From an uncultured Pseudomonadales bacterium (GTDB taxonomy: Bacteria > Patescibacteriota > Microgenomatia > UBA1400 > PJMF01): a DNA stretch of 64,000 nucleotides. The notes below the pieces were generated by a model. It did not search any database. It was not told the DNA's origin and saw only the letters and a list, made by a program, of their open reading frames with translations. A program made the position numbers and the translations under genes. This document shows positions 13,248 to 59,549 of this stretch, one piece after another (positions within the stretch are counted from its first letter, which is position 1; every line of letters starts with the position of its first letter). The stretch spans positions 1,122 to 65,121 of the forward strand of contig CAYPPX010000001.1 of NCBI GenBank assembly GCA_964412775.1, written 5' to 3'.

Positions 13248-13277
13248 CCCCTTCTACCCCGTGGGTAAGTGTCTCAT
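13248..13277 (+). repeat. GC-rich ~30-nt intergenic element, copy 2 (CACCCCTTCTACCCCGTGGGTAAGTGTCTCAT)
   Basis: 21/21 core identity (CCCCGTGGGTAAGTGTCTCAT) with copy 1; lies ~30 nt after the stop of the VanW-like gene. Confidence 0.5.
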
Positions 13278-13379
13278 ATTAATCTGTCTTTTAGCTTAAA
13301 AATACCCAAAAGTGATCAATTTGAACTTTTAAGATTGGTTTGACTAGTATCTGTTTATTTCAGTACACTGTTAGAGCTG

Positions 13380-13727: not shown

Positions 13728-13759
13728 TTTTTTAAGCCCAAATTAAATTCAGTTCCTGA

Positions 13760-16876: not shown

Positions 16877-17309
16877 AACAATGACTAAAAAAATAATCAA
16901 AAGACTAGCTATCACTTCAACCGGTTTATTGGTCATGCTATTAACTGCTTCAAATGTCTTGGCAGCGACCGGCTTATCAGGTGCCGAAAACTCTTATGAG
17001 GTTACGTCTGATGTTTTGGATTCTTTTGACCCACTCAAGGTTGCCGGCTCACCTCAAGCTTCAACTTTATCTACTCCAGGTGGAATCATTAGTCGCTTAT
17101 TAGAATTTATCTTTCCTTTAGCTGGATTTGGTCTCTTTATCATGATTTTAGCTGGAGGCTTACAGATTTTAGCTGGAGCTACTAATGCCAAAGGCTTAGA
17201 AGAAGGTAAAAAAAGAGTCACTATGGCTATAGTTGGGTTTTTGATTTTATTTGCTTCTTACTGGATAGCTCAAATTCTTGAGGTGATTTTTGGGGTTAAT
17301 ATTGTTTAA
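16866..17309 (+). CDS. Pilin-like small membrane protein (VirB2/TrbC-like architecture)
   Basis: Signal peptide, hydrophobic helix (FIFPLAGFGLFIMILAGGLQIL), basic loop (KGLEEGKKR) and second helix (VTMAIVGFLILFASYWIA); start overlaps the preceding gene. Confidence 0.5.
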   Translation: MEAKTMTKKIIKRLAITSTGLLVMLLTASNVLAATGLSGAENSYEVTSDVLDSFDPLKVAGSPQASTLSTPGGIISRLLEFIFPLAGFGLFIMILAGGLQILAGATNAKGLEEGKKRVTMAIVGFLILFASYWIAQILEVIFGVNIV

Positions 17310-33782: not shown

Positions 33783-34931
33783 ATGCCTGACGTTAATGAA
33801 ATTTCTTCTACCACTCAAAAATTTTTGGATATTTTTGATATTACTAATGATGTGGTTGTCTTAAAAGATGGCACTATCTCTTTAATTATGGTCATCAGTG
33901 CCATGAACTTTGGATTGCTAGCTGAACAAGAACAAGATGCAGTCATTTATGCTTATGCTGCTTTACTCAACTCTCTAAACTTCCCAATCCAAATTATTAT
34001 TAGTTCAAAAACCAAAGATGCTACAGCCTACTTGAGATTATTAGATGAACAAGCAGAAAAAGCATCAACTCAAGAGAAAGAAGACTTAATCAAGAGATAT
34101 CAAACTTTTGTCGGTCAACTAATCAGAGAAAGAAATGTTCTTGATAAAAAGTTTTATGTTTCAATTCCAGCTTCACCAGCAGAAGTTGGCATGATTACTC
34201 CTCAATCAGTTTTACCGGGCAATAGTGAAACCAAACTAACTAGAGACCAAAAAACTGCAGTCATTGAAAAAGGACTGGGGGTTTTAGAACCAAGAAGAGA
34301 TCATTTAATTGCTCAATTTAACAGAATTGGTCTTTACGCTAGACAACTCCATACCCAAGAGATTATTGAGATTTTCTATAATAACTATAATCCAGAGGCT
34401 TATGAAGGCCAACAAATTACTGATAGCAGTAACTATACCACTATGGTGGTTCAAGCCAAAACAGCTCCAGATTTAAGTTCTTTAAAAAGCTTAACTGAAG
34501 CAAATACAGCTAGCCAAGACAATCCAACTACCTTGGCTGAATTGCCACCTGCAGGAGTAGCTGAAATTAGTGAATCAGCAGTGGTACCTAGAGAACTACC
34601 AGAAAATAATTCTGGAATAGTGATAAACCAACCGGCTAGTCAACAAGCTCAAACACCTGTTAATGAACCCAAAATTGAACCAACAGTTACTCAGCCTCAA
34701 CCGACTCAACTTCCAAGTAAGCCTTTACCAAAACCAGCCCAACAAACTGTTTTTCAAGCAAATAAACCAGTTTTAGACACCACTGATCAACAACCACCAA
34801 TGAACCAACCTCTAGCTCAACCAAGTATCCAGAGTCAACCACAACTAACTTTAGAAAAAACAATTAGTGAAGTACCAATAAATAATCCTCAACCTACTGA
34901 CAAACCATTACCACCAGTAGCTGAGCTTTAA
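33783..34931 (+). CDS. Hypothetical protein with a Pro/Gln-rich C-terminal tail, just upstream of the VirB4-like ATPase
   Basis: ORF; low-complexity PQ-rich C-terminus; no motif. Confidence 0.3.
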   Translation: MPDVNEISSTTQKFLDIFDITNDVVVLKDGTISLIMVISAMNFGLLAEQEQDAVIYAYAALLNSLNFPIQIIISSKTKDATAYLRLLDEQAEKASTQEKEDLIKRYQTFVGQLIRERNVLDKKFYVSIPASPAEVGMITPQSVLPGNSETKLTRDQKTAVIEKGLGVLEPRRDHLIAQFNRIGLYARQLHTQEIIEIFYNNYNPEAYEGQQITDSSNYTTMVVQAKTAPDLSSLKSLTEANTASQDNPTTLAELPPAGVAEISESAVVPRELPENNSGIVINQPASQQAQTPVNEPKIEPTVTQPQPTQLPSKPLPKPAQQTVFQANKPVLDTTDQQPPMNQPLAQPSIQSQPQLTLEKTISEVPINNPQPTDKPLPPVAEL

Positions 34932-42553: not shown

Positions 42554-45466
42554 ATGTCTAGTTTTGAAACACAAATAATTAGCGAAAATCCTCGAGTAAT
42601 ACTCTTGGGTGATTATCAACCTTTTATCGATAAGATGGCTGGTTTGTTGAGTGAGTTCCAGTTGGATATTTGGCCATTAACAGCTAATGAGTTAATGCAT
42701 TTAGATTTTAGAAATTTAGATAATCAAACAGTTTATAAACTAATTTGGTGGCTAGATCTTGATAAACCTGAAGAGATTGACCAAATTAGGCAAATTTTAG
42801 CCCAGAACACTACGATTCCCAAAATTTTGCTTGGTGTTTTACCTGAATCTTATTCATTATTAGAACCAAATCAAAATATCTTATCTAAACAAAAACTTTT
42901 ACAACAGCTTATTTTTGAGTTCACAGATAGTCAATATTTCTTGATTAGAGATTTAGTGGCGGTTGATTACTTCTCGCCTATTTTCAAATTTTCTTTACAA
43001 AATTTAGTTAAAGGGAAATTGTTATTAACTCCAGGAAACAGTAATCTAATAGATCTGGATGTAGTTACTGAAAACTTGAGGACATATCTTTTTAAACCAG
43101 CCACAACTAGTAAAATAATTTTACAAGGCAAAACTGTTAGTAACCAAAAAATTTTAGAGTATTTTGCCCAAATCTACTCTAGAGTTTATGGCCATGATTT
43201 GGAGCTAGTTAGTGTTGATGCTAACTACCAAAAATTTAATTTACCAGATGAGTTAGTGGTTAAGCTTAATACTGATGAAAAAAAAATACTTGACCAAATT
43301 ATTGAGAATCAAACTGAACTAAAAAAACAGTTAGCCACTTTGCCCCACTTAGAAAATCAACAGTTAGTTGAACTAAATAAAATACCGGTTATTAGTCACT
43401 TAGATAGTGAAAAAACGGATTTGAATCTCAAAATCAATAAAGACATCATTGCTGTTAAACATCAGAATGAAAATCAAGAGATAAAAGAATTGATAGATCA
43501 ATCTAATTCTCTTAAAACTAGCTCTAGTGAACCATTTTTAGCCAAAGAAGAAAAAATCGAAGGTGAATTATCCAGATTATTCAAAGAAAAAAGAGAACTT
43601 AAAAAAGAAAAAAGAATTGATGAGAAAGTAAAAATAGTTAAAAAAATCTCTAGCAAATCAAAGAAAAATAGAGTTTTATTTGTTGGTGGAGTAGGGGTGA
43701 TGATTCTAGGAGGCGTAACTTTGGCTCTTTGGTTGATTTTAAGCTTGAGTGTTTTTTTGGCTAAAAAAGAGTTTGTTAATTATCTTTACAACAATACTCC
43801 TCAAAGTAACCAAGTTTACCAACCAGGATTTTGGCCTGGTATTTTAGACAAACAAACTAGTTTTTATCAAAAAATTCTAGGAGAGATAGTTGCTGATCAA
43901 GTCATGGTGGCAAGTTTATTTTCTGATTTTCAAGATTTACAAGACTTACAATTACAACTAGAAAAAGAAATTCAGAACTATACTTTGGGAGTTTTGGGCT
44001 CTGCCGAAACTAGAGCTGTTTTTCCTCCAGAAATAAACCAATTAGCTACGGAAATTGATAGCAAAATTAGCAACGTGGAAAATGCAATTTTTTATTTATC
44101 TCCAGAAGAAACTCCAGAACAAACTAAATGGATAAAATATCTAGAAGAAGTTAAAGAACAACTAGCAAAAACTAAACAATATCCAGAATTTTTCACTGAG
44201 TTTTTTGGTGGTAATGGTAAAAAAACCTACGCAGTTTTGTTGCAAAATAATCTAGAAATTAGAGCAACAGGTGGTTTTATTCAAGGATTTATATTATTAA
44301 CTTTTGATAAGGGTTTATTGATTGATAGTCAAATTTTTAATACTAATGAAGTTGATACTAGACTACCCGGTAATGTCGCTTCACCAGAGGAAGTACAACG
44401 CTATCTGGGGGAGAAAAATTGGTTTATTCGAGATAGTAACTGGGAGCCTGATTTTCCAACCACGGCTAATCGCGTTGGTTGGTTTATTAAAGAAGCTTTG
44501 AAAAAACAAGTTGATGGAGTAATTGCCCTTAATTATTATGTTACTCAAGATATTTTGGGTTCACTAGGTTCTTTAGAAGTTCCAGATTATCAAGAGACTT
44601 TGACTAAAGATAATTTATTAGAAAGAGTAGAGTTTCATTCTGATGAAGAGTTCATTAATCAACCTAATAGTGGGCAAAAAGACTACTCGGCTACAGTCTA
44701 TAAACAACTTTTAAGTGATTTAAAACAAATTAGTCCAGATCAGGCTAATAAGTTAGTTGAAGCTCTAGGCAATAGTTTAACCAATAAAAACTTACTAATT
44801 AGTTTATTTGATGAAAAAACTGCTGAGTTTTTACAAGCTATTGGTTGGAGTGGAGAAGTGATTGTCCCGATTTGTCCACAACGCTTTCCCCAAACCAACT
44901 GTTTAGTCAACCAAATTTACCAAGTTGAATCAAATATTGGTCTGAATCGAGTTAATGAATATATTAAACGGACAATCGAAGAAAGAGTAGAGTTCCAAGA
45001 TAAAAAAATTAAACATCTTAGAACAGTTACTTATACAAATACAGCCAAATCAGATGGTTGGCCACTGGGTAGTTACAAACTCTACTTAAGATTTATTACT
45101 GGCAAAGAAACTCAACCACGAGAAGTTCTGATTAATGGTAAAAAACTTGATGGAGCTTTAGCTAATGTTTATCTTGAAAATGATAAAAAAATAGTTGGTT
45201 TTCCACTAGAAATCCACAAAGATTCAACAGTGACAGTTCAATATACTTACGAGACGGATAAGTTGTTAGATGAGCCATTTTCTTACTTATTATTTGATCA
45301 AAAACAGCCTGGTATTAAACGAGAAGATCTAAAAACAACCTTTTACTTTCCTAACAGAAAACCAACCTTGATTGCCCCACAAGGGACATTATCTGGTGAT
45401 ACTTTAGAGTTTAATTCTCTAACAGATGACCACTCTTTTGTTGGTGTCAGTTTACAGAATAAATAA
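42554..45466 (+). CDS. Large membrane-anchored hypothetical protein (970 aa)
   Basis: Cytoplasmic N-domain, single TM (~res 370-395), long extracytoplasmic domain; no confident family assignment. Confidence 0.35.
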   Translation: MSSFETQIISENPRVILLGDYQPFIDKMAGLLSEFQLDIWPLTANELMHLDFRNLDNQTVYKLIWWLDLDKPEEIDQIRQILAQNTTIPKILLGVLPESYSLLEPNQNILSKQKLLQQLIFEFTDSQYFLIRDLVAVDYFSPIFKFSLQNLVKGKLLLTPGNSNLIDLDVVTENLRTYLFKPATTSKIILQGKTVSNQKILEYFAQIYSRVYGHDLELVSVDANYQKFNLPDELVVKLNTDEKKILDQIIENQTELKKQLATLPHLENQQLVELNKIPVISHLDSEKTDLNLKINKDIIAVKHQNENQEIKELIDQSNSLKTSSSEPFLAKEEKIEGELSRLFKEKRELKKEKRIDEKVKIVKKISSKSKKNRVLFVGGVGVMILGGVTLALWLILSLSVFLAKKEFVNYLYNNTPQSNQVYQPGFWPGILDKQTSFYQKILGEIVADQVMVASLFSDFQDLQDLQLQLEKEIQNYTLGVLGSAETRAVFPPEINQLATEIDSKISNVENAIFYLSPEETPEQTKWIKYLEEVKEQLAKTKQYPEFFTEFFGGNGKKTYAVLLQNNLEIRATGGFIQGFILLTFDKGLLIDSQIFNTNEVDTRLPGNVASPEEVQRYLGEKNWFIRDSNWEPDFPTTANRVGWFIKEALKKQVDGVIALNYYVTQDILGSLGSLEVPDYQETLTKDNLLERVEFHSDEEFINQPNSGQKDYSATVYKQLLSDLKQISPDQANKLVEALGNSLTNKNLLISLFDEKTAEFLQAIGWSGEVIVPICPQRFPQTNCLVNQIYQVESNIGLNRVNEYIKRTIEERVEFQDKKIKHLRTVTYTNTAKSDGWPLGSYKLYLRFITGKETQPREVLINGKKLDGALANVYLENDKKIVGFPLEIHKDSTVTVQYTYETDKLLDEPFSYLLFDQKQPGIKREDLKTTFYFPNRKPTLIAPQGTLSGDTLEFNSLTDDHSFVGVSLQNK

Positions 45467-47126: not shown

Positions 47127-49367
47127 CTATTTTGCCAATTTTTTAGTTGGCCAGGAAGAGGTAATTAGCAGTTCTTCTTTAACTAGTTTTTTAGTTTTTA
47201 GCTCTTGCCAGACAGCTTCGGTGACAAATGGTACAAAAGGGTGGAGTAGGGCTAAAAATGTTTTAAGACCAATAATCAGGTTTTCTCCTTTGAGCTTACC
47301 TTCTTTAGCAATCTCAATTTGTTCGTCGCAAAACCAATGCCAAAACTCGTTATAGACTGTTTCTGCAGCCAAACCCAATTGAAATTTTTGTAAATTTTTA
47401 GTAATTGCTTGAGTTGTTAATGTTAATTTTTTAGTAAATTCTTGGTTAATTTTTTCATCGCCGGCTTGAGATAAATCTAGATATTCAAGAATAAATCTAG
47501 AAGCATTCCAGATTTTATTGGAAAAGTTTCTCATGGCTTTGAAATCTTGATCACCAACTGATTTATCCAAACCAGCTGAAGACCTAATGACTAAAGCCAT
47601 TCTGAGCGCGTCAGATCCATATTTTTCGGCAATATCCAGAGGATTGACTACATTACCCTTACTTTTACTCATTTTTTGACCTTGTTGGTCTCTAACCAGG
47701 CCGTGTAAGTAAATATCAGTAAATGGTAAATTACCGGTAATGTATTTACCCATCATCAACATTCTCATTACCCAAAAAGGCAAAATATCGTAACCAGTTT
47801 CCATTACTTGAGTAGGGTAGAAGTTTTTGAAGTCTTCTGGGTTTTTGTTTAAAGTGGTTACTGGCCATTGAGCAGAGCTAAACCAAGTATCAAAAGTATC
47901 GGTTTCTTGAAGGTAATTTGCACCTGGTGAAGAAGCACTAACAACAAACTTTGAGTTAATTGGGGCCCTTAATTCTTGTAATCCTTGATTAATAGCTGAT
48001 AAATCAAATTTTTTAAGTAAATCACCAAGTTTTCCAGTGATTTTTTCTTTAGCCGTGTTTAAAAAGCTGACATTAATCTCTGGATTTTCTGTGGCTTCAT
48101 ACCAGACCGGAATTCTGATTCCCCAAACAATTTGTCTAGAAATATTCCAGTCTTTGAGGTTCTCTAACCAGTGTTTGAGAATTTTATCGTGGCCAGCACC
48201 ATGAACAGTAAATTTTTTACTCTTTAGGTCTTCAAGAATTGGTTGAGTGAGTTGTTTAACTCTAATAAAGAACTGAGGTAAAAGTAGTGGTTCAATTGGT
48301 CTTTTACATCTGTAACAGGTACCGATACGGTTAGTGTATTTATCGTTTATTTTTTCGACTAATCCTTTTTCCTGGAGGTCTTTAACGACCTCATCTCTAG
48401 CAGTTTTAACTTTCATGCCAGCATATTTACCACCATTAGCAGTGATTTTACCTTCGAGGTTAATGGCGTGATACATTGGTAGACTGTGAGTTTTAGCAAC
48501 TTGAAAATCATTAGCATCATGAGCTGGAGTGAGTTTAACAATTCCAGTACCAAATTCTGGGTCAACAAATTCGTCACCGATTATTTCCATTTCTTCGTTG
48601 GTGAGTGGATTTAAAACTTTTTCACCAATTAAATAGTTATGATGTTTATCAGTTGGATTAACTGCTAAGTGAGTGTCGGCAAAAATTGGTTCTGGTCTAA
48701 CTGTCGCGACAGTAATGAATTTGGTTGGATCTTTAACTAGGGGATATTTGATGTAGTAAAGTGGAGAAATTTGATCTTGATAAACCACTTCTAGCTCGGA
48801 AAAACTAGTGCCACAGTGAGTGCAGTAGTTGACTAGTTGTTCATCACGATAAAGGAGCTCATCTTGGTGTAACTTGATAAAAGTAGCCAAAACTTGTTCT
48901 ACGACTTTTTCATCAAGCATGAAAGTAAATCTAGACCAATCAGCACTAGCTCCAATTTTTTTCATTTGATCAACTGCAACCTCAGAGTTATTTTGGACAT
49001 AGTCCCAGATCATTTGATAGAGAGTTTCTCGATCAAATTGAAATCTACTTTGGTTGTTTTTTTTGAGTTTTTTTTCAAAAACAAATTGAGTTTCAATACC
49101 AGCGTGGTCTGTACCTGGTAGCCACAAGGTTTGATCACCCAACATCCTGTGAAAACGAATTAAAATATCCTCAAGAGCAATAAACATGGCATGACCAATG
49201 TGTAATGGGTCATTAGCATTTGGGGGAGGCATCATGATCGTAAATGACTTAGCTCCTGTTTTTAAAACTGGTTTAAAAGCTCCAGCTTGTTCCCAAAGTT
49301 GGTAAAGTTGTTGCTCTAGTTGTTGATGGTCGTAGCGATTGTCCATAGATAGGCTGAATTGTACCAC
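47127..49367 (-). CDS. valS: Valine--tRNA ligase (compact form)
   Basis: HIGH motif PPPNANDPLHIGHA, KMSKS motif, editing-domain segments; 746 aa is shorter than canonical ValS. Confidence 0.9.
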   Translation of the reverse strand: MVQFSLSMDNRYDHQQLEQQLYQLWEQAGAFKPVLKTGAKSFTIMMPPPNANDPLHIGHAMFIALEDILIRFHRMLGDQTLWLPGTDHAGIETQFVFEKKLKKNNQSRFQFDRETLYQMIWDYVQNNSEVAVDQMKKIGASADWSRFTFMLDEKVVEQVLATFIKLHQDELLYRDEQLVNYCTHCGTSFSELEVVYQDQISPLYYIKYPLVKDPTKFITVATVRPEPIFADTHLAVNPTDKHHNYLIGEKVLNPLTNEEMEIIGDEFVDPEFGTGIVKLTPAHDANDFQVAKTHSLPMYHAINLEGKITANGGKYAGMKVKTARDEVVKDLQEKGLVEKINDKYTNRIGTCYRCKRPIEPLLLPQFFIRVKQLTQPILEDLKSKKFTVHGAGHDKILKHWLENLKDWNISRQIVWGIRIPVWYEATENPEINVSFLNTAKEKITGKLGDLLKKFDLSAINQGLQELRAPINSKFVVSASSPGANYLQETDTFDTWFSSAQWPVTTLNKNPEDFKNFYPTQVMETGYDILPFWVMRMLMMGKYITGNLPFTDIYLHGLVRDQQGQKMSKSKGNVVNPLDIAEKYGSDALRMALVIRSSAGLDKSVGDQDFKAMRNFSNKIWNASRFILEYLDLSQAGDEKINQEFTKKLTLTTQAITKNLQKFQLGLAAETVYNEFWHWFCDEQIEIAKEGKLKGENLIIGLKTFLALLHPFVPFVTEAVWQELKTKKLVKEELLITSSWPTKKLAK

Positions 49368-49470
49368 GATTCACATCTGGTAATAAGATCTTTATTTAGT
49401 AAAAGGCTATCTATAAAATGTTTTTTATAGTTTTTACGACTAAAAAGTATTACTTGTTTAAAGGATTATT

Positions 49471-50169
49471 ATGCAGGTTCCACAACATATCGCAATTATT
49501 ATGGATGGAAATAGACGTTGGGCCAAACAAAAAGGTTTGGAGGTCTTTTTGGGTCACCAAAAAATGGCTAAAGAGGGTATAGAGCAAGTAGTGAGAGCAA
49601 GTATTGACTTGGGTGTAAAGTATTTAACTTTGTGGGCATTTAGTACAGAAAATTGGGATCGTGATCCTAAAGAGATTGCTTTTTTAATGCAACTGTTTAG
49701 AGACTTGTTTAAGGAACAAGCTGGAGAATTAGCAAAACTAGGCGTTAGAATTAATGCTTTGGGTGACCTAACCCGTTTTGACCAAGATATTCAGGACAAT
49801 ATTGCTCTTTGGAAAGAAAAAACTAAGGGTAATTCTAAATTAGTTTTAAGTATTGCCATTAATTATGGGGGAAGAGATGAAATTTTAAGAGCAATCGAAA
49901 AAGTTACTCAAAAAGTAAAAGCGGGGGAGCTTTCAGCAAACAAATTAACTGTTGAACAATTTTCAAGTTATTTAGATACGGCAGGCATGCCTGATCCAGA
50001 ATTAATTATTCGTACTAGTGGAGAACAACGAATGTCTGGATTTTTACTTTGGCAAAGCAACTATTCAGAGTTTTATTTTACAAATACCTTGATGCCTGAT
50101 TTTGACAAAGCAGAGTTGGAAAAAGCGATTAAAGACTTTAATTCTAGAGGTAGAAGGTTTGGTAAATAG
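49471..50169 (+). CDS. uppS: Undecaprenyl diphosphate synthase
   Basis: HIAIIMDGNRRWA and downstream cis-prenyltransferase motifs (ENW.R, RTSGE.R.S.FLLWQ). Confidence 0.9.
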   Translation: MQVPQHIAIIMDGNRRWAKQKGLEVFLGHQKMAKEGIEQVVRASIDLGVKYLTLWAFSTENWDRDPKEIAFLMQLFRDLFKEQAGELAKLGVRINALGDLTRFDQDIQDNIALWKEKTKGNSKLVLSIAINYGGRDEILRAIEKVTQKVKAGELSANKLTVEQFSSYLDTAGMPDPELIIRTSGEQRMSGFLLWQSNYSEFYFTNTLMPDFDKAELEKAIKDFNSRGRRFGK

Positions 50170-50174
50170 CGGTT

Positions 50175-50585
50175 TTACCAGTTAGTATCTGCTGTTGGGA
50201 TTGAAAATTGCAGAATGCTTTTAACACCAGTAAATTCGGCAATTAAATTTAAGATAATAAATGAACTGAGGGCTACCACTAAGCCAACTACAGCAAAGGT
50301 AATAGAGCTTTTGGATTTTTCAACGGCTTGAGAATTACCACCGGAAAGCATAATTCTAATTCCAGAAACAACTAGCATTATAAAACCAGCAATACCAATG
50401 ATGGTTAAAAAGTTACTTAAAAGTCTGGCTAATAAACACTGAAAACCTTGAATAGTTGCAACATCAGTATGAGTGTCATCAACACAGACACCAGTCCATT
50501 GAGCACTGGCTGGTAAAGCAGCCAGTAAGAAGATTAAGTTGGTAGTGATGAAACCAATAATTCTAGTGGAGTATTTTTTTAACAT
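50175..50585 (-). CDS. Pilin-like small membrane protein, divergent member of the array (VirB2/TrbC-like architecture)
   Basis: Signal peptide, helix 1, loop SGGNSQAVEKSKSS, helix 2; same layout as the downstream paralogs. Confidence 0.45.
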   Translation of the reverse strand: MLKKYSTRIIGFITTNLIFLLAALPASAQWTGVCVDDTHTDVATIQGFQCLLARLLSNFLTIIGIAGFIMLVVSGIRIMLSGGNSQAVEKSKSSITFAVVGLVVALSSFIILNLIAEFTGVKSILQFSIPTADTNW

Positions 50586-50629
50586 AATTTAAGTCAAAAA
50601 TTCGTTGTTAATGGCATTATACATCAGAA

Positions 50630-50662
50630 ACTAAAAACCCCACACCTTAAAGCGTGGGGTTT
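50630..50662 (-). terminator. Rho-independent terminator after the pilin array (hairpin CCCCAC/GTGGGG plus T-run on the minus strand)
   Basis: Minus-strand reading: AAACCCCACGCTTTAAGGTGTGGGGTTTTTAG. Confidence 0.5.
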
Positions 50663-50684
50663 CTTGATTACTTTTTTGAAGTCT

Positions 50685-51089
50685 TTATTTACCAGTAATA
50701 CTTTTGGTGTTAAAGACATCATTGAGGTCTGAGAAGCCAAGGAAGTTCAAGGCAAGGGTCAAGACTGCATATGAAGCAGCCACCACGATCAAACCAATGA
50801 TAGCTGAAGTGATTTTGTTTCTAGCAGCTTCAGTTTTACCTTTGTCACCACCACTAGTAATCCATTCGATACCACCCCAAATGAGATAGAGGAAAACTAA
50901 CAAAGCAGCAATTACCATCACAAAACTTAAGACACCATTAATCAAACCACCAAAATCAGTGGCAAAACCTTTACCTGGGTCTACGTTAGTATCAGTAATC
51001 TTGGTGGCAGCAGCTACTGGTAAAACACTAGTAGCCAAACCACTAAGGGCAACTCCGGTGGAGAGAGCAAATTTTTGAATTTTGTTCAT
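50685..51089 (-). CDS. Pilin-like protein paralog (VirB2/TrbC-like), conserved EWITSGGDKGKTEAARNKIT loop
   Basis: Signal peptide plus two hydrophobic helices around the GIEWITSGGDKGKTEAARNKITSAIIGLIVVAAS core; nearly identical to the core of the next gene. Confidence 0.55.
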   Translation of the reverse strand: MNKIQKFALSTGVALSGLATSVLPVAAATKITDTNVDPGKGFATDFGGLINGVLSFVMVIAALLVFLYLIWGGIEWITSGGDKGKTEAARNKITSAIIGLIVVAASYAVLTLALNFLGFSDLNDVFNTKSITGK

Positions 51090-51174
51090 ACTTTTCCTTT
51101 TAAATTTTTATTCCTTAATAATCTACTTGTTAATTGTATCAAGAATTTACCTGATTCGTCAAAAAAAGATTTTT

Positions 51175-51516
51175 CTAGCAACTTCCATCAAAGCTTAGTA
51201 CACAAATTCCCAAGAAACTTTGCAATAACATAAAGATAGCAGTAGTGGCAGCTAAAACAATTAAACCAATAATTGCTTGAGTGATTTTATTTCTAGCAGC
51301 TTCAGTTTTACCTTTGTCACCACCACTAGTAATCCATTCAATTGCTCCCCAAAGCAAAAAAATTAAGACCATTACGGCTGCGATAACCATGATGCCTCCC
51401 ATTAAGCCACCAAGTAGAGTGCCAAAGTTTTTTTGAGGATCAGCACTAACAGCTCCTGGCAAGTTGCCTTGGGCAGCTCCTGATAAGTCTAGTGTAGCAG
51501 CAATGGTTTTATTCAT
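51175..51516 (-). CDS. Pilin-like protein paralog (VirB2/TrbC-like)
   Basis: Core AIEWITSGGDKGKTEAARNKITQAIIGLIVLAAT. Confidence 0.55.
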   Translation of the reverse strand: MNKTIAATLDLSGAAQGNLPGAVSADPQKNFGTLLGGLMGGIMVIAAVMVLIFLLWGAIEWITSGGDKGKTEAARNKITQAIIGLIVLAATTAIFMLLQSFLGICVLSFDGSC

Positions 51517-51519
51517 AAT

Positions 51520-51933
51520 TTAATTTGGATCCGGAACGTTAATTTGTAAGACACTAAAGGTATCACCAAAGAAAATTTCACCAATAAAGCCAATAATTGC
51601 ATATGAACCAACCAAAACAACTAGACCAATTACGGCTTGAGTAATTCTGTTTCTAGCATTTTCGACCTTGCCTTTATCGCCACCACTACCAATCCATTCA
51701 ATTGCTCCCCAAACAAAGAAGATCAAAACTGTAATAGCACCAATACTAATTAAGGCATTCCAAAAGAAAATAAAGTATTCAGCAAAAGTACTGCCAGAAG
51801 CAGCTTCTTTTGAACCACTACCATATTTACCACTAACAACGGGGTTAGTTATTTCAGCTTTGACTGGGCTAGCCAAAAAAAGTCCTAATAGAAAAGTGTT
51901 GATGGCTGTTGATATTTTGGTTAGTTTTTTCAT
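51520..51933 (-). CDS. Pilin-like protein paralog (start refined to the internal Met MKKLTKIS)
   Basis: Core AIEWIGSGGDKGKVENARNRITQAVIGLVVLVGS; the longer ORF-track start would overlap the upstream paralog. Confidence 0.5.
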   Translation of the reverse strand: MKKLTKISTAINTFLLGLFLASPVKAEITNPVVSGKYGSGSKEAASGSTFAEYFIFFWNALISIGAITVLIFFVWGAIEWIGSGGDKGKVENARNRITQAVIGLVVLVGSYAIIGFIGEIFFGDTFSVLQINVPDPN

Positions 51934-51937
51934 ATTT

Positions 51938-52309
51938 TTAAATAGAGTCAACAATTGTTTGAATTTGTTCTGCTGGATTAAGTAAGTCAATACCAATGAA
52001 GCTACCCAGTAAACCAAGAATAGCGTAAGAAGCCACAATAATAACCAAACCAATGGCTCCGTTCATCATTCTAGTTCTGGCTTTTTCGGTTTTACCTTTA
52101 TCACCACCACTAGTAATCCATTCAAAGGCACCAAGCACAAAATAGATAACAAAAAAAACAGTTCCAATAGTGGTCATGAAACCAATGATATTTGAAATGA
52201 AAAGTTCTAGGTTTGACAAAGCCCCACCAGCAGTATTAGAGCCTTTACTGTAAGCTTCGGTAGGTGGTTTGAATCCACCAATGTCGATTGTTTTTTGTGC
52301 TAATTGCAT
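51938..52309 (-). CDS. Pilin-like protein paralog
   Basis: Core AFEWITSGGDKGKTEKARTRMMNGAIGLVIIVAS. Confidence 0.55.
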   Translation of the reverse strand: MQLAQKTIDIGGFKPPTEAYSKGSNTAGGALSNLELFISNIIGFMTTIGTVFFVIYFVLGAFEWITSGGDKGKTEKARTRMMNGAIGLVIIVASYAILGLLGSFIGIDLLNPAEQIQTIVDSI

Positions 52310-52312
52310 GTT

Positions 52313-52744
52313 TTATACTCCTTGGATCTTTGGATTTAAGATATATGAGGCATCTCCAAAGAAAACTAAACCGATGATGGCTGCTAAAGTATATGAGCCA
52401 ACGATAATCGCTAAACCAATCACGCTGTTGGTCATCATATGAGAAGCATCAGTATGAGCTTTGCTATCACCAGAAGAAGTAATATATTTCCAGCCAGCCA
52501 AAATAAAGTTGAGCATGACCCAAACACCAGCCACTGTGGTAGCCAATCTAATGCCATTTGAGGCAAAAAGTAGTAAACCACCACTTTGGAGATCACCATA
52601 TTTGTCAACTCCAGCAGGTGGTTTAATGGAACCAAAAACACCTCCAGCAGCAGCTCCAGAAGGAGCTGGAGTAGCAGCAAAAACTTGTTTAACATTTAGG
52701 AGTAAAAGACTTAAGCTAAGGAATATTTGGTTTATTCTTTTCAT
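52313..52744 (-). CDS. Pilin-like protein paralog (divergent loop SSGDSKAHTDASHMMT)
   Basis: Signal peptide, two hydrophobic helices, weaker match in the loop. Confidence 0.5.
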   Translation of the reverse strand: MKRINQIFLSLSLLLLNVKQVFAATPAPSGAAAGGVFGSIKPPAGVDKYGDLQSGGLLLFASNGIRLATTVAGVWVMLNFILAGWKYITSSGDSKAHTDASHMMTNSVIGLAIIVGSYTLAAIIGLVFFGDASYILNPKIQGV

Positions 52745-52787
52745 TTTCTCTGGATATTCTATTACTTTCTTTATTTTTTAGCTAGTT

Positions 52788-53126
52788 TTAGATTCTAATG
52801 TCTGCTCCGGTGACAAGCTTAATTGCTTGAACAGCCCAGTAGGCAGCAAACATCACTGAAAAACCAATCACTGCATTTTTGAAGATAGTTAAAGCTTGGT
52901 CTTTACCTTTGGCAGTATCAGAAATGTAGTAGTAACCAGCCATAATAATCATCACAAAAATAATAATTCCACTAACCATAAACATGTTTGGTACGATTAA
53001 ATTAACCAAGTCAGCTGGGGTTTTATAAACATCTTTAACAGCTCGACCATCACCCAAAGTTAGGGTAGAGCCCAAATCAACTCCTCCAGCACCAATATTT
53101 TGAGCAGCAAGTAAAGTATTTAGCAT
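52788..53126 (-). CDS. Pilin-like protein paralog (most divergent; loop SDTAKGKDQALTIFKNAVIG)
   Basis: Same two-helix layout with a KGK-containing loop; first gene of the array. Confidence 0.45.
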   Translation of the reverse strand: MLNTLLAAQNIGAGGVDLGSTLTLGDGRAVKDVYKTPADLVNLIVPNMFMVSGIIIFVMIIMAGYYYISDTAKGKDQALTIFKNAVIGFSVMFAAYWAVQAIKLVTGADIRI

Positions 53127-53150
53127 CTGATGCTATTATATCAGTAAATT

Positions 53151-53714
53151 ATGTTGAGAAGAGGAGTTTTTTCTTTAGCTAAAGAAGATCTACTAATTAA
53201 TGAGTTAAAAACCGGTAATAAACAAGCGGTTAGATATTGGTATAAACTGTTTTTTCCAGTTTTGTTAAGGCTTGCTTTACAAAAAGTTGCTAATAAAAAA
53301 GATGCTGAAGAGTTGGTTCAAGAAACATTTATTAATTCTCTAAAACAGATTCAGTTGTTTCAACAAAAATCAAAGTTGAAAACTTGGATGGTGAGTATTT
53401 TGTACCATGAAATTGCTGACTATTACCGCAAGAGATACGCCAAAAAAGCCCTAAAGATAGTGCCACTTTTAGATGAAATTTTGCAAAAACCACTTCTTAG
53501 CTCTGATGAACTCAACCAAAAAGTAGAGACCGTTTTGGCTGAAATGAAAAAAGATTCAAGAGATTTATTATTGTTGAAGTATTTTGATAAGAAAAAAGTG
53601 AAAGAAATTGCTAAAAAACTAAAAAAAACTGTTAAGGCAGTTGAGGCAGATTTATTCAAAGCTAGAAGAGAATTTAAAGATATTTATTTAGCTAAGGGCT
53701 ACTTAAACAGATGA
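53151..53714 (+). CDS. ECF-type RNA polymerase sigma-70 family factor
   Basis: Region 2 (LVQETFINSLKQIQLFQQKSKLKTWMVSILYHEIADYYRKR) and region 4 HTH (IAKKLKKTVKAVEADLFKARREFK); divergent from the pilin array. Confidence 0.65.
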   Translation: MLRRGVFSLAKEDLLINELKTGNKQAVRYWYKLFFPVLLRLALQKVANKKDAEELVQETFINSLKQIQLFQQKSKLKTWMVSILYHEIADYYRKRYAKKALKIVPLLDEILQKPLLSSDELNQKVETVLAEMKKDSRDLLLLKYFDKKKVKEIAKKLKKTVKAVEADLFKARREFKDIYLAKGYLNR

Positions 53715-53896
53715 AAACAAGCAGATTTCTTCAATTATTAGAGCAAGAAGCGGTTAAACAGGCAGAGCTGGAAAAGACGAGTTTATTACCCAAGAACTTA
53801 AATTTTTTGGCTAGTTTTTTTATTAGGCATATGTGGCAGTCATTAGCTTTAATATCATTTATTTTGGCAGTGATTAAAGTGGTTTATGAAAAGTAA
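53711..53896 (+). CDS. Small single-TM protein coupled to the sigma factor by ATGA overlap; anti-sigma factor candidate
   Basis: Start/stop overlap (ATGA at 53711-53714); C-terminal TM WQSLALISFILAVIKVVY. Confidence 0.25.
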   Translation: MKTSRFLQLLEQEAVKQAELEKTSLLPKNLNFLASFFIRHMWQSLALISFILAVIKVVYEK

Positions 53897-54227
53897 TTTA
53901 TTAAAAACAACCCATCTATTTTCGTCATTTGGTTATTCTTTAATAGAAATGACTCAAGGACTTTTTTTTCATCCTTATCAAACCATGCAGTTTCTTTTTA
54001 CTAAAAAAACTTTTAGTTTTTTAGTTTTTATGCCAATGATACTTTTAACTTTAGCTAAACTAGCTTTTGTAGTTTTGGGTAGTTTGCAGTTGTTTCCTGA
54101 ATTAGTAATGGTTAAAAACCTTCTATGGTATTGGGTTAAGTATTTTTGTTTACTTTGGCAGCTGGTTTTGGGCTATTTGTTTATTCGTTTTTGGTATGCT
54201 TGGAGACCAAGATATTCAAAAAACTAA
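53886..54227 (+). CDS. Small polytopic membrane protein, hypothetical
   Basis: ORF with two or three hydrophobic helices; overlaps neighbours by a few nt. Confidence 0.3.
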   Translation: MKSNLLKTTHLFSSFGYSLIEMTQGLFFHPYQTMQFLFTKKTFSFLVFMPMILLTLAKLAFVVLGSLQLFPELVMVKNLLWYWVKYFCLLWQLVLGYLFIRFWYAWRPRYSKN

Positions 54228-54230
54228 ATC

Positions 54231-55280
54231 ATGAAAGTCGTTCACTCAATTCTTCTACAAAACTTTCGAACTTTTAAACAACAACAAGTTGATTTTGCCT
54301 TGCGCACTTTACTAGCTGGAAAAAATGGTGCTGGTAAAACATCAATTATTGAAGGTTTATATTTGCTTTCTCACGGCGAGAGTTTCCGAGCTTCAGTAGT
54401 TGAGGAAATGATTAGTTTTGATCAAGAACTAGCTAGAGTTGGTGGTAAAGTAGACGAGGATATTTTAGAAGTCGCTTTAACAAGAGGTGTTTTGCAAGGA
54501 AAAAAAACTTTAAAAAAACACTATTCACTAAATGGAGCTAAAAAGAGAAAAAAAGATTTTGTTGGTCAGTTTTTTGCTGTCGTTTTTAGGCCAGAAGATA
54601 TGCGTTTGATTGAGGGTTCTCCTGTTAGAAGACGAAGTTTTATTGATAGTGTTTTAAGTATTACTGATCTTGATTATGCTCATTCTTTACATACTTATGA
54701 ACAAGCTTTAAAGAGAATTAATAAACTTTTTGAGGTAGTTCGTGATGGTTCTCAGCCACGATCTGTGTTGAAGTATTGGGAAATGATGTTGATTAAGCAT
54801 GGTGAATATTTACAAGAAAAAAGACAAGCTTTTTTTAGTTTTTTACGAACAGTTGAGTTCCCTTATGATTTTAATGTTAAATATTTAGTTTCCAAAATTA
54901 GTGAAGAAAGTGTTTCTAGTCACAGAGATCGAGCAATTTTGGCTGGTTATCTTTTAACTGGTCCACACAAAGATGACTTTCAAGTGTTATTTGCGAGTGA
55001 AAAACTAAACAATCGAGATGTAGCAGCTTTTGGTTCAAGAGGCCAACAACGACTAGGAGTATTGTGGTTAAAATTGGGTGAGTTGCAATATGTGGAACAG
55101 TTACGGGAACAAAAACCGTTGTTTTTATTAGATGATATTTTTTCCGAACTAGATGAAGAAGCACAGCTAATGATTTTGGAGTTAATTAATAAATACCAGA
55201 CAATAGTTACGACTGCTCATGAAGAAACAGTCGCATTTCTCAAAGCAAAAGTCTTAGATTTAAAAACCGTTGAGTTTTAG
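54231..55280 (+). CDS. recF: DNA replication and repair protein RecF
   Basis: Walker A LLAGKNGAGKTSIIEG, SMC-like signature region, Walker B LFLLDDIFSELD. Confidence 0.85.
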   Translation: MKVVHSILLQNFRTFKQQQVDFALRTLLAGKNGAGKTSIIEGLYLLSHGESFRASVVEEMISFDQELARVGGKVDEDILEVALTRGVLQGKKTLKKHYSLNGAKKRKKDFVGQFFAVVFRPEDMRLIEGSPVRRRSFIDSVLSITDLDYAHSLHTYEQALKRINKLFEVVRDGSQPRSVLKYWEMMLIKHGEYLQEKRQAFFSFLRTVEFPYDFNVKYLVSKISEESVSSHRDRAILAGYLLTGPHKDDFQVLFASEKLNNRDVAAFGSRGQQRLGVLWLKLGELQYVEQLREQKPLFLLDDIFSELDEEAQLMILELINKYQTIVTTAHEETVAFLKAKVLDLKTVEF

Positions 55281-56114: not shown

Positions 56115-56420
56115 TTATTTTTTTTTGGCTTTTTTTAGCAAAGAATCATTAACATCTTCAAGTGTTTTCTGCATTTGAGCGAGTTGCATGGTGACAAAAA
56201 CAGCTAAAACAGTGACAACTAAAGCATAAATAAACAGTGAAATTACACCACTACTGTTACCTAAAAATGGTGAAATATAGGTTTCAACGACAGCTTTAAT
56301 CGCCTCATTCCAGGCTAAAGCTACCACCACTCCGAAACCACTTGTAGCAAGAGTAACTACATTTTTTATTAAAACTAGTGGTACTTCTTTAATATTTTGA
56401 GGTGAATCGATATTAGCCAT
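56115..56420 (-). CDS. Small membrane protein, hypothetical
   Basis: Two hydrophobic helices, Lys-rich C-terminus. Confidence 0.35.
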   Translation of the reverse strand: MANIDSPQNIKEVPLVLIKNVVTLATSGFGVVVALAWNEAIKAVVETYISPFLGNSSGVISLFIYALVVTVLAVFVTMQLAQMQKTLEDVNDSLLKKAKKK

Positions 56421-56572: not shown

Positions 56573-57658
56573 ATGTATCAGCCAAATTTTAATATTACTC
56601 ATAACTTGTTAACTTATATTGCTAGTATTGAGGCTAGCAAAGCTCTGATAGATAGTGCTCCACTGGTACCATCTTGGGAAGCTAAATTTAGAGATGAGGC
56701 TTTAACTAGAACGGTCCACTTTGGAACTAAAATTGAAGGCAATGACCTCAGTGAAGAACAAGCCAAACAAGTGATTCATTTTAATGGTGACTTGAAAAGT
56801 GAAGACTTTGCAGAAAAAACTGGCGTAGTAGCTCGTGAGCGAGATATTCAAGAGGTCATTAATTACAGGAATGTGTTGTTATGGATTGACCAACAAAAAG
56901 CTTTGGATAGAAAACCAGACTTTTCACTTGAGATTCTGCATACTTTACATTCATTAACGATGAGAGGATTAATTGAAGAAGAGGAAATAGGGCAGTTTAG
57001 GAAAAAACAGGTTATTGTCAGAGGTGTGGGTGATGGCAAAGTAGTTTTTAGACCACCAGTTTCTGTGGAAGTGCCATTTTTGGTTGAGGAACTTTTTGCT
57101 TGGTTGGGAAATCCCAATAACCAAATTCACCCGATTTTTAAGGCAGCAATTGTCCATTATCAATTGGTTTATATTCATCCTTATGTTGAGGGAAATGGTC
57201 GAACAGCTCGAGCTTTTGCCACTTTAGTTCTTTACTTGCTTGGTTATGACTTTAAACGATTTTTTTCACTTGAACAGTATTTTGATAGTGATGTTGACCA
57301 ATACTATAAAGCTCTATTATCGGTTCAACAGAGTGCCAGTACCGAAATGACTTTTTGGATGGAGTATTTTTGTTATGGTTTAGCCGTAGAAATTGATAAA
57401 GTTAAACACCAGGTTCAAAAACTTTCCAAAGACCTTAAACTCAAAAAAGAATTGGGGGCTCAAGTAGCTTTATCAGAACGACAGATTATTTTGTTAGAAT
57501 TACTCCAGAACAAGGGTAAAATTACTTCTGATGATGCTCAAGAAGTTTTGCCTAATATTTCGGTTGATACAATTTTACGTGATATTAGAGATTTGATTAA
57601 AAAAGGTGTCGTCAAAAAAGAAGGTGTTACTAAGGGGGTAAACTACTCGTTAGTTTAA
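56573..57658 (+). CDS. Fic/DOC family protein (AMPylase-type fold)
   Basis: Canonical Fic motif HPYVEGNGRTARA (HPFx[D/E]GNGR). Confidence 0.8.
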   Translation: MYQPNFNITHNLLTYIASIEASKALIDSAPLVPSWEAKFRDEALTRTVHFGTKIEGNDLSEEQAKQVIHFNGDLKSEDFAEKTGVVARERDIQEVINYRNVLLWIDQQKALDRKPDFSLEILHTLHSLTMRGLIEEEEIGQFRKKQVIVRGVGDGKVVFRPPVSVEVPFLVEELFAWLGNPNNQIHPIFKAAIVHYQLVYIHPYVEGNGRTARAFATLVLYLLGYDFKRFFSLEQYFDSDVDQYYKALLSVQQSASTEMTFWMEYFCYGLAVEIDKVKHQVQKLSKDLKLKKELGAQVALSERQIILLELLQNKGKITSDDAQEVLPNISVDTILRDIRDLIKKGVVKKEGVTKGVNYSLV

Positions 57659-57716: not shown

Positions 57717-59549
57717 ATGCTTTTTGCTCAATTTGCTCAACATTTACAAAAAATAGAAACAACCTCATCTCGCTTGGAAATGACTGCTTACTTGGCACAG
57801 TTATTTAAAGAATTGGCAGCTGAAGAAATTCCCATTGCGGTTTATTTATCACTTGGGCAACTAACTCCGGCTTATAAAAACTTGGAGTTTCAGCTTTCTA
57901 CTAAAATGGTTTTGAGGGTATTAGTTCAACAAATGGCCCAAAATACTGATTTATATGGTGACGGTTTACCTGCGGCCAATTTATTTGACGAGGCTGATAT
58001 TTCCATGTATGAAACCAAGGCCAACCAACTTTATAAAAAAAATGGTGATATTGGTAAAACTGCTCAAGAGGTTTTTGCTTTAAGTAAAAATAAAGACTTT
58101 TCTAAAACAATTTTAGCTGTTTACCAGGATTTAATTGAGGTAGCTGAAGACGCTGGGGCTGGTTCTCAAGAAAGAAAAATTAATTTATTGTTGAAGCTTT
58201 TTCAGGGTTTAGACGAAGTTTCAGTCAGATTTGTTAGTCGAATTGTGGTGGGCAAACTACGTTTGGGGTTTTCTACCATGACAATTTTTGATGCTTTGTC
58301 ATGGACTAAACACCAAAACAAAGCCGATGCAGAATTTTTAGAAGAACTCTTTCAAAGAAAAGCCGACTTAGGTTTATTAGCTCAAATGTATCTCCAAGAA
58401 AACGATAAAAAAGTTTTATTAGCAAAATATCATGCTGAGTTTGGGGTGCCGATTGTGCCAGCCTTGTGTCAACGCCTCAATACTGCTCAGGAAATCATTG
58501 AAAAAATGGACAAAGTGATTGTTGAACCAAAGTATGATGGTTTGAGAATTCAGATTCACCTGGATAAAAAAACTGGTGTAGTTAAATCTTTTACTAGAAA
58601 CTTAGAAGAGACTTCTCATATGTTTCTAGAGTTAAAAAAAGCTTTAACTGAAATAAATTGTGACAGTTGTATTTTGGATGGTGAAGTAGTGGGCCTGGAT
58701 AAAAAAACTGGAGCAATTTTACCTTTTCAGGAGACTGCTACTAGAAGAAGGAAACATGGTGTTGCTGCCAAAGCTGCTGAAATTCCAGTTCACTTTTACA
58801 TTTTTGACATTTTATTTCAAAATAACCAGTCGCTATTAGATACTGCTTTGACTACCAGAAAAGCAATCCTTCAGGATATTCTAAATCAAGCTACCACTTT
58901 TACGCCCACTCCATTTGTTGTAACCAACGATGCTCAGGAATTGAGAGAGTTTCATGAAGAACAACTGGCCAATGGTCTTGAAGGGGCAGTGATGAAGAAA
59001 GATGACTCTTTATACAAAAGTGGTCGAAAAGGTTGGCGTTGGGTCAAGATTAAAGAAGCAGAAGGCAGTAAAGGCAAACTCAATGACACTTTGGATTGTG
59101 TAGTGATGGGTTATTATGCTGGTCGTGGTAAAAGAGCCGGTTTTGGGTTGGGGGCGTTTCTAGTTGGGGTGGTGGCAGATAATGGCATGATTGAAACAGT
59201 GGCAAAAATTGGTACCGGCTTATCTGATGATCAATTTAGAGAATTCAAACAAAGAACTGCAAAGTTGGTGGTAGAAAATGATTTCAAAGCAATTGCTGAT
59301 ATAAAGCCGGTTGAGTACCGAGTTCATAAGAATCTCTATCCTGATGTCTGGGTAAGGCCTGGTTTAGTGGTGGAAATTGCGGCTGACGAAATTACCAATT
59401 CTCAGATTCACTCAGCTGGTCAAGATACTGCTAAGAATATACCTGGCAAAGCATTACGTTTTCCTCGTTTAGTTAAATTTAGAGATGACAAGGGAGTTAC
59501 AGAAGCAACTACTGTCAGAGAGCTAGCTTCTATTTCCCATTTAGTTTAA
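57717..59549 (+). CDS. ATP-dependent DNA ligase (archaeal/eukaryotic Lig-type)
   Basis: Adenylation motif I KYDGLR, subsequent nucleotidyltransferase and OB-fold motifs, 610 aa. Confidence 0.8.
   Translation: MLFAQFAQHLQKIETTSSRLEMTAYLAQLFKELAAEEIPIAVYLSLGQLTPAYKNLEFQLSTKMVLRVLVQQMAQNTDLYGDGLPAANLFDEADISMYETKANQLYKKNGDIGKTAQEVFALSKNKDFSKTILAVYQDLIEVAEDAGAGSQERKINLLLKLFQGLDEVSVRFVSRIVVGKLRLGFSTMTIFDALSWTKHQNKADAEFLEELFQRKADLGLLAQMYLQENDKKVLLAKYHAEFGVPIVPALCQRLNTAQEIIEKMDKVIVEPKYDGLRIQIHLDKKTGVVKSFTRNLEETSHMFLELKKALTEINCDSCILDGEVVGLDKKTGAILPFQETATRRRKHGVAAKAAEIPVHFYIFDILFQNNQSLLDTALTTRKAILQDILNQATTFTPTPFVVTNDAQELREFHEEQLANGLEGAVMKKDDSLYKSGRKGWRWVKIKEAEGSKGKLNDTLDCVVMGYYAGRGKRAGFGLGAFLVGVVADNGMIETVAKIGTGLSDDQFREFKQRTAKLVVENDFKAIADIKPVEYRVHKNLYPDVWVRPGLVVEIAADEITNSQIHSAGQDTAKNIPGKALRFPRLVKFRDDKGVTEATTVRELASISHLV

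Follow-up and report, generated by a model that had tools for sequence, protein, structure and literature searches.

The window analysed here, i.e., a stretch of 64,000 nucleotides from contig CAYPPX010000001.1 of an uncultured bacterium of the Microgenomatia (Patescibacteriota), carries seven consecutive minus-strand genes (termed g7 to g1, with g7 being the first gene of the array; Table 1) that very probably constitute an array of old, non-redundant paralogs encoding pilin-like proteins of the PF18895 (T4SS_pilin) family. An earlier description, made from the DNA letters alone and hereafter called the sequence-only reading, had reported seven such consecutive genes, and open reading frame (ORF) calls corroborated them with products of 112–143 amino acids. 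That description is partly confirmed, in that the observation itself is largely real and several of its details are wrong or overstated. Its interpretation is likewise partly supported: it was right at the level of a curated family of the candidate phyla radiation (CPR) and of the genomic context, whereas its evolutionary and regulatory readings are not supported.

All seven proteins matched PF18895 (gathering threshold of 26.6 bits), with g1–g5 scoring above the threshold (31–42 bits) and g6 and g7 scoring below it; for the latter two PF18895 was still the best match, and both are positional members of the array. The NCBIfam model NF045849, describing the pilin-like conjugal transfer protein of Mycoplasma integrative conjugative elements (ICEs), also yielded weak matches to all seven (up to 33 bits, with a cut-off of 40), and the closest homologs were found in Candidatus Pacebacteria/Paceibacterota and Microgenomates metagenome-assembled genomes. 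The sequence-only reading had proposed a VirB2/TrbC architecture as opposed to a type IV (PilA) prepilin. Five of seven matches to PF18895 above threshold and the lack of a prepilin signal support the prediction that these proteins are conjugative-type pilin-like hairpins of a type IV secretion system (T4SS), rather than PilA or Flp prepilins. The VirB2/TrbC family proper (PF04956; threshold of 27.9 bits) was not reached, since among the seven only g2 matched it, with 16.1 bits (E = 0.013), next to a weak precomputed match on a few orthologs. Alignment of the 58-sequence family alignment to seven annotated plasmid VirB2/TrbC proteins with hhalign gave a probability of 0.8% (E = 0.066, 20 columns), and the family profile found no match among all PDB chains up to E = 10. 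Foldseek comparison of the g2 model with the PDB returned nothing below E = 1, the conjugation pilus of Aeropyrum pernix (8dfu) appearing at rank 34 with a non-significant E of 9.2 and a TM-score of 0.65 normalised to the target. The proteins are thus VirB2-like by name and working resemblance, and neither sequence nor fold comparison could show shared ancestry with VirB2/TrbC.

Other classes of small membrane protein were considered as well. Type IV PilA-like and Flp/Tad prepilins were rejected because a class III signal (G↓F/M-x-x-x-E or G↓xxxxEY) is absent from all seven proteins and each of them has two helices; moreover, none of the seven matched the N_methyl or Flp_Fap families of Pfam. 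Holin-like or toxin-like small membrane proteins were dropped in view of the PF18895 matches, the chromosomal conservation over ~80 species and the T4SS context.

Hydropathy analysis upheld the two-helix hairpin plan for each of the seven proteins, with two hydrophobic 19-residue segments separated by a polar/charged loop. The signal peptide that had been ascribed to every member was recognised only in g1, g2, g4 and g6 (as a Sec-type N-terminus with a basic n-region and a hydrophobic h-region), and g3, g5 and g7 instead start with a weakly hydrophobic segment of 35–45 residues. Similarly, an alignment of the seven placed the supposedly near-invariant EWI(T/G)SGGDKGK loop in g2, g3, g4 and g5, with degenerate versions in g1, g6 and g7. 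The AlphaFold2 model of g2, built from the 58-sequence alignment, comprises a signal helix, a disordered stretch and a hairpin of residues 46–78 and 83–116 around an SGGD loop (predicted local distance difference test, pLDDT, > 90). A separate feature concerns g1, whose orthologs retain two cysteines (C34 and C50 here) in the predicted extracytoplasmic N-terminal segment, which suggests a conserved disulfide peculiar to g1 among the paralogs.

The evolutionary history of the array was examined in a set of 80 related loci (one genome per species), in which ORFs were labelled by their best phmmer match to the window proteins. The paralog order from 7 to 1 was collinear in all 62 complete arrays; these contained 6–10 genes, with seven genes in 28 loci, and extra copies were restricted to the 6-type and the 2-type. 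Several types could be recognised from motifs of their own, i.e., dLg..L.L.dg..V.dVy..Pa.lVNLiV in g7 (with a positional ortholog in 70 loci), the C-terminal fFGDA.yIlNP in g6 (kept in 72 orthologs), ItNPv following the signal peptide in g4, PG.GFATDFG in g2, and AQW.gvCv…dVATIQG..CLlA in g1 (kept in 77 orthologs). The N- and C-terminal segments diverge among the paralogs (which are 20–32% identical to g1, with a mean column identity of 41% and the termini as the most divergent parts) and are conserved inside each ortholog group over ~70 species. Towards the three closest genomes the pilin genes showed 62–90% identity, and their ratio of non-synonymous to synonymous substitution rates (dN/dS) of 0.05–0.26 lay in the same range as that of valS, recF and uppS, a rough estimate only given that dS exceeded 1 (saturated) in every comparison. 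The most conserved gene of the neighbourhood was g2, with 88–90% identity to the closest relatives (i.e., above valS) and a mean ortholog core identity of 0.70. These sequence comparisons showed the seven predicted proteins to be old, non-redundant paralogs, each under apparent purifying selection comparable to that on valS, recF and uppS.

The cores of g2 and g3 had been described as almost identical and recently duplicated, yet they share only 65% identity over a 71-residue core (77% at the DNA level over 158 nt). Since g2 and g3 each have their own orthologs in > 60 species, their duplication must be old. Moreover, a core identity of 0.54 within genomes versus 0.50 between genomes indicates that the duplication predates these species and that little gene conversion occurred. 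A recent duplication was rejected accordingly, the gene conversion test giving at most this slight excess. In addition, a direct-repeat search of the locus recovered only the paralogous cores (63–77% identity), with no cassettes or switch repeats.

The predicted expression signals set g2 apart from the other members. In nearly every relative, g2 is preceded by TTGACx, a 17-nt spacer and TGnTATAAT, followed by a leader of ~45 nt with AAGGAG. Upstream of g2, TTGAC-N16-19-TAnnAT was found in 35 out of 75 relatives compared with 0.3% of random windows, and 61 out of 77 loci have a Shine-Dalgarno (SD)-like site before this gene. The terminator that had been placed after the last member of the array is in fact located between g2 and g1, i.e., after the sixth gene transcribed. 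Equivalent hairpins lie 3′ of g2 in many relatives, and an Rfam scan of positions 49300–54400 gave sub-threshold terminator-like matches only. The layout of g7 is different: relatives show the same TATAAT box, often preceded by TG, and a –10-like hexamer lies 5–11 nt before the start in 40 of the 67 loci, none of which has an SD-like site. Because the –10 element of g7 lies ~8 nt before the ATG and no SD is present, a leaderless or near-leaderless g7–g3 mRNA is predicted. An extended –10 element was detected upstream of g1 in 18 out of 75 relatives (2.5% background). These signals point to three transcription units (g7–g3, g2 and g1), with g2 likely being by far the best expressed. Given its own promoter, SD and terminator and its highest conservation, we propose that g2 is probably the major subunit.

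Leaderless-looking arrangements also occur elsewhere in these loci. In relatives, g1 is often arranged like g7, with a –10 box close to the ATG, and in one subgroup of relatives the sigma gene described below has TGTAAAAT 8–9 nt before its ATG, thus looking leaderless in the same way. A leaderless-looking first array gene recurs across many Microgenomatia species (loci L005–L084).

Divergently from g7 lies a module of three overlapping genes. The sequence-only reading had identified the first as an extracytoplasmic function (ECF)-type sigma factor with a translationally coupled single-transmembrane protein, and this identification held, with sigma regions 2 and 4 (Sigma70_r2, 48 bits; Sigma70_r4_2, 39.9 bits), a TIGR02937 match (73 bits, cut-off of 42.9) and an ATGA overlap between both genes; no region 1.2 or region 3 match was found. 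The 61- and 113-aa proteins encoded next to it have no Pfam or NCBIfam match, and no anti-sigma domain is recognisable in the former. Its position, translational coupling and single transmembrane segment would suit an anti-sigma partner, although its cytoplasmic part comprises only ~35 residues. The pattern FL..L..EA..Q..L....LLP..L…WQ is kept in 57 orthologs of the 61-aa protein, and the 113-aa protein has the conserved motifs GL..HPYQtMQ and FC..WQ..L.YL..RF.

This sigma/61-aa/113-aa module was divergent and adjacent to the array in 58 of the 65 loci having enough upstream sequence, while recF stood beside the module in only 29 of these 58 and uppS beside g1 in 26 of 62. When sigma homologs of 47–49% identity were taken as starting points, all three loci showed a divergent pilin array with different outer neighbours. 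Since the link between sigma gene and array stays despite changed outer neighbours, their linkage is stronger than background synteny. Seven loci carry the array without an adjacent sigma module. A connection between a sigma factor and pilin arrays of Patescibacteria was not mentioned in the literature searched (including PMC12102498 and PMC12857230).

The further claim of dedicated sigma control of the array is not supported, since the promoters appear to be of the sigma-70 type and ECF-type motifs occur at background frequency. More specifically, AAC-N16-18-CGT was found in 0–4% of the regions upstream of the sigma gene and g1–g7 compared with 4.3% of random windows, and visual inspection agreed. 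With neither ECF motif enrichment nor an anti-sigma domain, the terms "anti-sigma" and "sigma control of the array" should therefore be read as hypotheses. In the spacer between both start codons (53127–53150), the TATAAT of g7 and a TATTAT/TTATAT on the sigma side share an AT-rich stretch lying between the arms of a short inverted repeat (CTGAT…ATCAG), and the promoters of g7 and the sigma gene may compete for RNA polymerase. On the other side, recF follows the three genes of the module in the same direction (53151–55280, plus strand). As neighbouring genes of this series either overlap or are separated by 3 nt, the present genome may transcribe recF together with the ECF sigma operon; this recF link is missing in about half of the relatives.

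Two further PF18895 genes are located outside the array, i.e., one encoding a 417-aa protein and a ninth pilin-like gene (Table 1). The ectodomain of the 417-aa protein is predicted to form two tandem immunoglobulin (Ig)-like beta-sandwiches (AlphaFold2, mean pLDDT of 83), and Foldseek matched the model to Ig-like folds, among them invasin, intimin and Fab chains. Judging from this model, it is a candidate adhesive, surface-exposed pilin subunit. In five of the seven loci without a sigma module (L027, L061, L067, L069 and L077), this pair, i.e., the large pilin-domain protein and a small pilin, is encoded directly upstream of the array.

On balance, we consider it probable that the locus is the PF18895 array of a monoderm T4SS of the Pacebacteria/Microgenomatia and that it operates as a heteromeric filament in the following way. 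The hairpins would insert in the cytoplasmic membrane with both ends facing outward and the short Lys/Arg-rich loop in the cytoplasm, and members bearing a Sec signal would be cleaved. A VirB4-driven machine would then pull out the hairpins and stack them into a pilus-like filament or a wall-spanning tube. In this assembly g2 would be the major and most abundant subunit, and the SD-less g7–g3 operon and g1 would provide specialised subunits in low copy number (acting in initiation or as tip, base or adaptor), a division of labour resembling that between major and minor pilins in type IV pili and in type II pseudopili. The Ig-domain pilin would be a candidate adhesive subunit, and the ECF sigma/61-aa/113-aa module a conserved neighbour possibly sensing envelope or contact status. 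Taken by itself, the proposition of a heteromeric filament with g2 as its major subunit seems to us to have nearly, but not quite, an even chance. Rather doubtful is the fullest version, in which the seven paralogs and the Ig-domain pilin would form one ordered heteromeric filament or tube (with a g2 shaft and six dedicated initiation, tip or base subunits) whose expression or assembly would be tied to an envelope- or contact-sensing ECF sigma/mini-anti-sigma module via overlapping divergent promoters; if true, no T4SS pilus before it would have had such a division of labour between major and minor pilins.

Several points weigh against the heteromeric filament. The array lies 13 kb and ~12 genes downstream of virB4, with housekeeping genes in between, and g3, g5 and g7 have no recognisable signal peptide. 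The split between major and minor subunits is inferred from expression signals only, and the dN/dS estimates suffer from the saturation mentioned above. To our knowledge, none of the T4SSs of Patescibacteria has been observed to form a filament.

VirB2-like pilin genes arranged in tandem have been reported from Patescibacteria before (Wang 2023; Quinonero-Coronel 2025, PMC12102498), and a survey with PF18895 and PF04956 counted 441 arrays of 2–11 pilin genes across 383 assemblies, most notably of Microgenomatia and Saccharimonadia, with a mean identity of 25% and the T4SS near dnaA (PMC12102498). Antigenic variation or adaptation to different hosts was suggested for these arrays (PMC12102498), and a 2025 review gives the same account (PMC12857230). 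Applied to the present locus, as the sequence-only reading had done, this would make the paralogs alternative pilins able to replace one another and so to vary the exposed surface of a single filament, for which the low identity among paralogs, their highly divergent termini and the varying copy number of 6–10 among relatives could be adduced. However, the seven types are fixed in order and identity throughout the 62 complete arrays, the paralog-specific termini are conserved within ortholog groups, and copy-number change is limited to the 6-type and the 2-type. The rates are housekeeping-like with no non-synonymous excess, and neither near-identical copies nor silent cassettes, invertible promoters or switching repeats were found. 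Since fixed order, paralog-specific termini and housekeeping-like rates speak for a structure of several subunits rather than for antigenic variation, we regard such diversification as very improbable. Less remote, albeit still unlikely, is a non-filamentous role, in which the hairpins would stay in the membrane and form a hetero-oligomeric ring or line a channel, either in the T4SS or in some other envelope machine, and "pilin" would be no more than the name of PF18895. The absence of significant similarity to solved pilins in sequence or fold, the distance to virB4 and the three members without signal peptide all agree with it, as does the resemblance of a fixed, stoichiometric-looking set of seven distinct subunits to a defined complex; moreover, the T4SSs of Gram-positive bacteria usually lack a pilus (PMC12857230, PMC10633639). 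Yet the much stronger expression signals of g2 would rather fit a polymer made mostly of one subunit, a 300-residue Ig-like ectodomain on one family member fits surface exposure, and the weak matches consistently go to pilin-like conjugal proteins.

The array might also be controlled as a regulon by the ECF sigma factor next to it, with an envelope or host-contact signal freeing the sigma factor from the 61-aa anti-sigma and thereby switching on the pilin genes. This idea draws on the adjacent and divergent position of the module, which is retained when recF or uppS are exchanged and was recovered in all three loci reached from sigma homologs of 47–49% identity, and on the overlap of the g7 and sigma –10 regions within the 24-nt spacer. 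In contrast, the conserved elements before g2, g7 and g1 are of the housekeeping type, including the TG of an extended –10. The latter is generally described as being read by sigma region 3, which is absent from ECF sigma factors. In addition, AAC-N16-18-CGT stays at background upstream of every gene, sigma included, seven loci do without an adjacent module, and an anti-sigma domain could not be detected in the 61-aa protein, making control by this sigma factor quite improbable, more so than a membrane-bound complex.

Compared with the published arrays of Patescibacteria (Southlakia epibionticum ML1, Nanosynbacter lyticus TM7x and the 441 arrays of PMC12102498), the present one consists of tandem divergent paralogs of the same PF18895 family and shares a chromosomal monoderm-type T4SS near dnaA. 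The T4SS and pilin series are essential in the one species of the Patescibacteria tested genetically, and the essential pilin series of Southlakia epibionticum is located in the T4SS cluster (PMC10633639). Here, by contrast, the array lies outside the T4SS cluster, has as its partner an ECF sigma module that goes unmentioned in the literature searched, and shows a positional orthology that conflicts with the published antigenic or host-range idea. The VirB2/TrbC pilins (Agrobacterium VirB2, RP4 TrbC and F TraA) are alike in their small size, two helices, short basic loop, cleavable leader (for some members here) and genome-encoded VirB3/VirB4-type partners. They differ in lacking significant sequence or profile similarity, in their Gram-negative rather than monoderm host, in being encoded by one gene rather than by 7–9 paralogs, and in that the present array is not adjacent to virB3/virB4. 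The Mycoplasma ICE protein (Mbov_0395/MMCAP2_0565; NF045849) is likewise a hairpin protein of a monoderm T4SS, although the ICE has a single copy of it and is mobile and conjugative, and the scores obtained here all stay below 40 bits. Archaeal Ced/Ted pili (Aeropyrum pernix, PDB 8dfu) also combine a hairpin pilin with a VirB4-type machine and no outer membrane, but use a single pilin type, and the structural match is non-significant.

Type IV pili and type II pseudopili share the logic of one abundant major subunit and an operon of low-copy specialised subunits by analogy only, since fold and assembly ATPase family are different and neither a class III signal nor a PilD site is present here. 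Tandem VirB2 paralogs are likewise found in Bartonella and Anaplasma, where they are thought to vary for immune evasion, whereas the present paralogs are ancient and individually conserved. As tandem pilin-like arrays in CPR genomes are already in the literature, the discovery value of this locus is modest, what is new being that its positional orthology is fixed, that g2 has expression signals of its own and that the sigma module is a conserved neighbour. Nevertheless, Patescibacteria account for much of bacterial diversity and lead a host-attached life, and a fixed set of conserved subunits with one dominant member would replace "variable surface antigens" by a "multi-part machine" as the working model, with g2 orthologs as the protein to seek in filaments and the conserved sigma module as a candidate regulator.

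Table 1. Positions in the window of the pilin-like genes, their expression signals and other features discussed in the text.
Feature	Position	Strand	Size	Description
g7	52788–53126	minus	112 aa	First gene of the array; PF18895 21.9 bits; hairpin without signal peptide; YYISDTAKGK
g6	52313–52744	minus	143 aa	PF18895 17.4 bits; signal peptide and hairpin; degenerate loop KYITSSGDSK
g5	51938–52309	minus	123 aa	PF18895 39.1 bits; EWITSGGDKGK loop; no signal peptide
g4	51520–51930	minus	136 aa from ATG	PF18895 31.9 bits; signal peptide; loop EWIGSGGDKGK
g3	51175–51516	minus	113 aa	PF18895 35.3 bits; EWITSGGDKGK loop; degenerate N-terminus
g2	50685–51089	minus	134 aa	PF18895 41.6 bits, highest of the seven; signal peptide; DPGxGFATDFG segment; candidate major subunit
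g1	50175–50585	minus	136 aa	PF18895 31.2 bits; predicted separate transcription unit; signal peptide (…ALPASA↓QW); hairpin loop LSGGNSQAVEKSK; segment aligned to the loop motif RIMLSGGNSQ
g7 extended –10	53135–53143	minus		TGaTATAAT; ends 8 nt before the g7 ATG; no Shine-Dalgarno; overlaps likely –10 of the sigma gene
g2 promoter	51133–51162	minus		TTGACG, 18 nt, TACAAT, with TG before the –10; then ~40-nt leader and AGGA ribosome-binding site
Terminator after g2	50633–50664	minus		14-bp stem, 4-nt loop, U-run; z = –3.1; sole strong terminator
g1 extended –10	50616–50623	minus		TGTATAAT; 30 nt before the g1 ATG
ECF-type sigma factor	53151–53714	plus	187 aa	Divergent from g7, 24 nt between start codons (53127–53150)
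61-aa protein	53711–53896	plus	61 aa	N-terminal helix of ~35 residues and one C-terminal transmembrane segment; ATGA overlap with sigma stop; candidate anti-sigma
113-aa polytopic membrane protein	53886–54227	plus	113 aa	Overlaps the 61-aa gene; always accompanies the sigma gene; followed by recF
417-aa PF18895 pilin	15623–16876	plus	417 aa	30.2 bits at residues 351–404; Cys-rich ectodomain of ~300 residues between signal peptide and hairpin
Ninth PF18895 pilin-like gene	16881–17309	plus	~142 aa from ATG	26.9 bits; partner of the 417-aa protein
T4SS coupling protein (VirD4/TrwB-like)	3050–5227	plus		TrwB_AAD_bind 40 bits; TraG-D_C 33.5 bits
Mbov_0396-like membrane protein	20894–22579	plus		Weak match
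M23 protein	28085–31663	plus	1192 aa	Peptidase_M23 23.8 bits, under the gathering score of 28.7; E = 5e-5
PrgI (VirB3-like) family protein	32680–33732	plus		PF12666 30.4 bits
TrsD-like protein	33783–34931	plus		Weak match
VirB4-like T4SS ATPase	34961–37081	plus		P-loop_TraG 89.9 bits; AAA_10; CagE_TrbE_VirB; immediately upstream of dnaA
dnaA	37196–38683
Sortase	1101–1949	minus
VanW-like and SpoIID-like cell-wall proteins	11294–15520
DUF4012 protein	42554–45466	plus	970 aa
DUF5654 small membrane protein	56115–56420	minus
Fic/DOC protein	56573–57658	plus		DeoR-type helix-turn-helix
ATP-dependent DNA ligase	57717–59549	plus

The genes of a monoderm-type T4SS are dispersed around the replication origin in the window (Table 1), which also contains a weak match to the Mbov_0397 (VirB4) family. 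Based on its sequence, the Mbov_0396-like membrane protein is possibly a VirB6 equivalent, a type reported to be scarce in Microgenomatia. In the window ORFs that were scanned, neither a relaxase nor a homolog of VirB5 was detected. The presence of dnaA and dnaN, together with a cumulative GC-skew minimum at ~36–38 kb, is consistent with a replication origin within the window.

At the ends of the array, the g1 stop codon lies 5 nt from that of the convergent uppS gene. The start of g4 was set at an ATG, a longer ORF from a TTG running into g5 without ortholog support (the orthologs measure ~135 aa in public annotation). A sortase gene and genes for VanW-like and SpoIID-like cell-wall proteins flank the T4SS/pilin region and may have a bearing on remodelling of the wall or anchoring at the surface. 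Finally, the genes for the DUF4012 protein, the DUF5654 small membrane protein, the Fic/DOC protein and the ATP-dependent DNA ligase are syntenic in close relatives.

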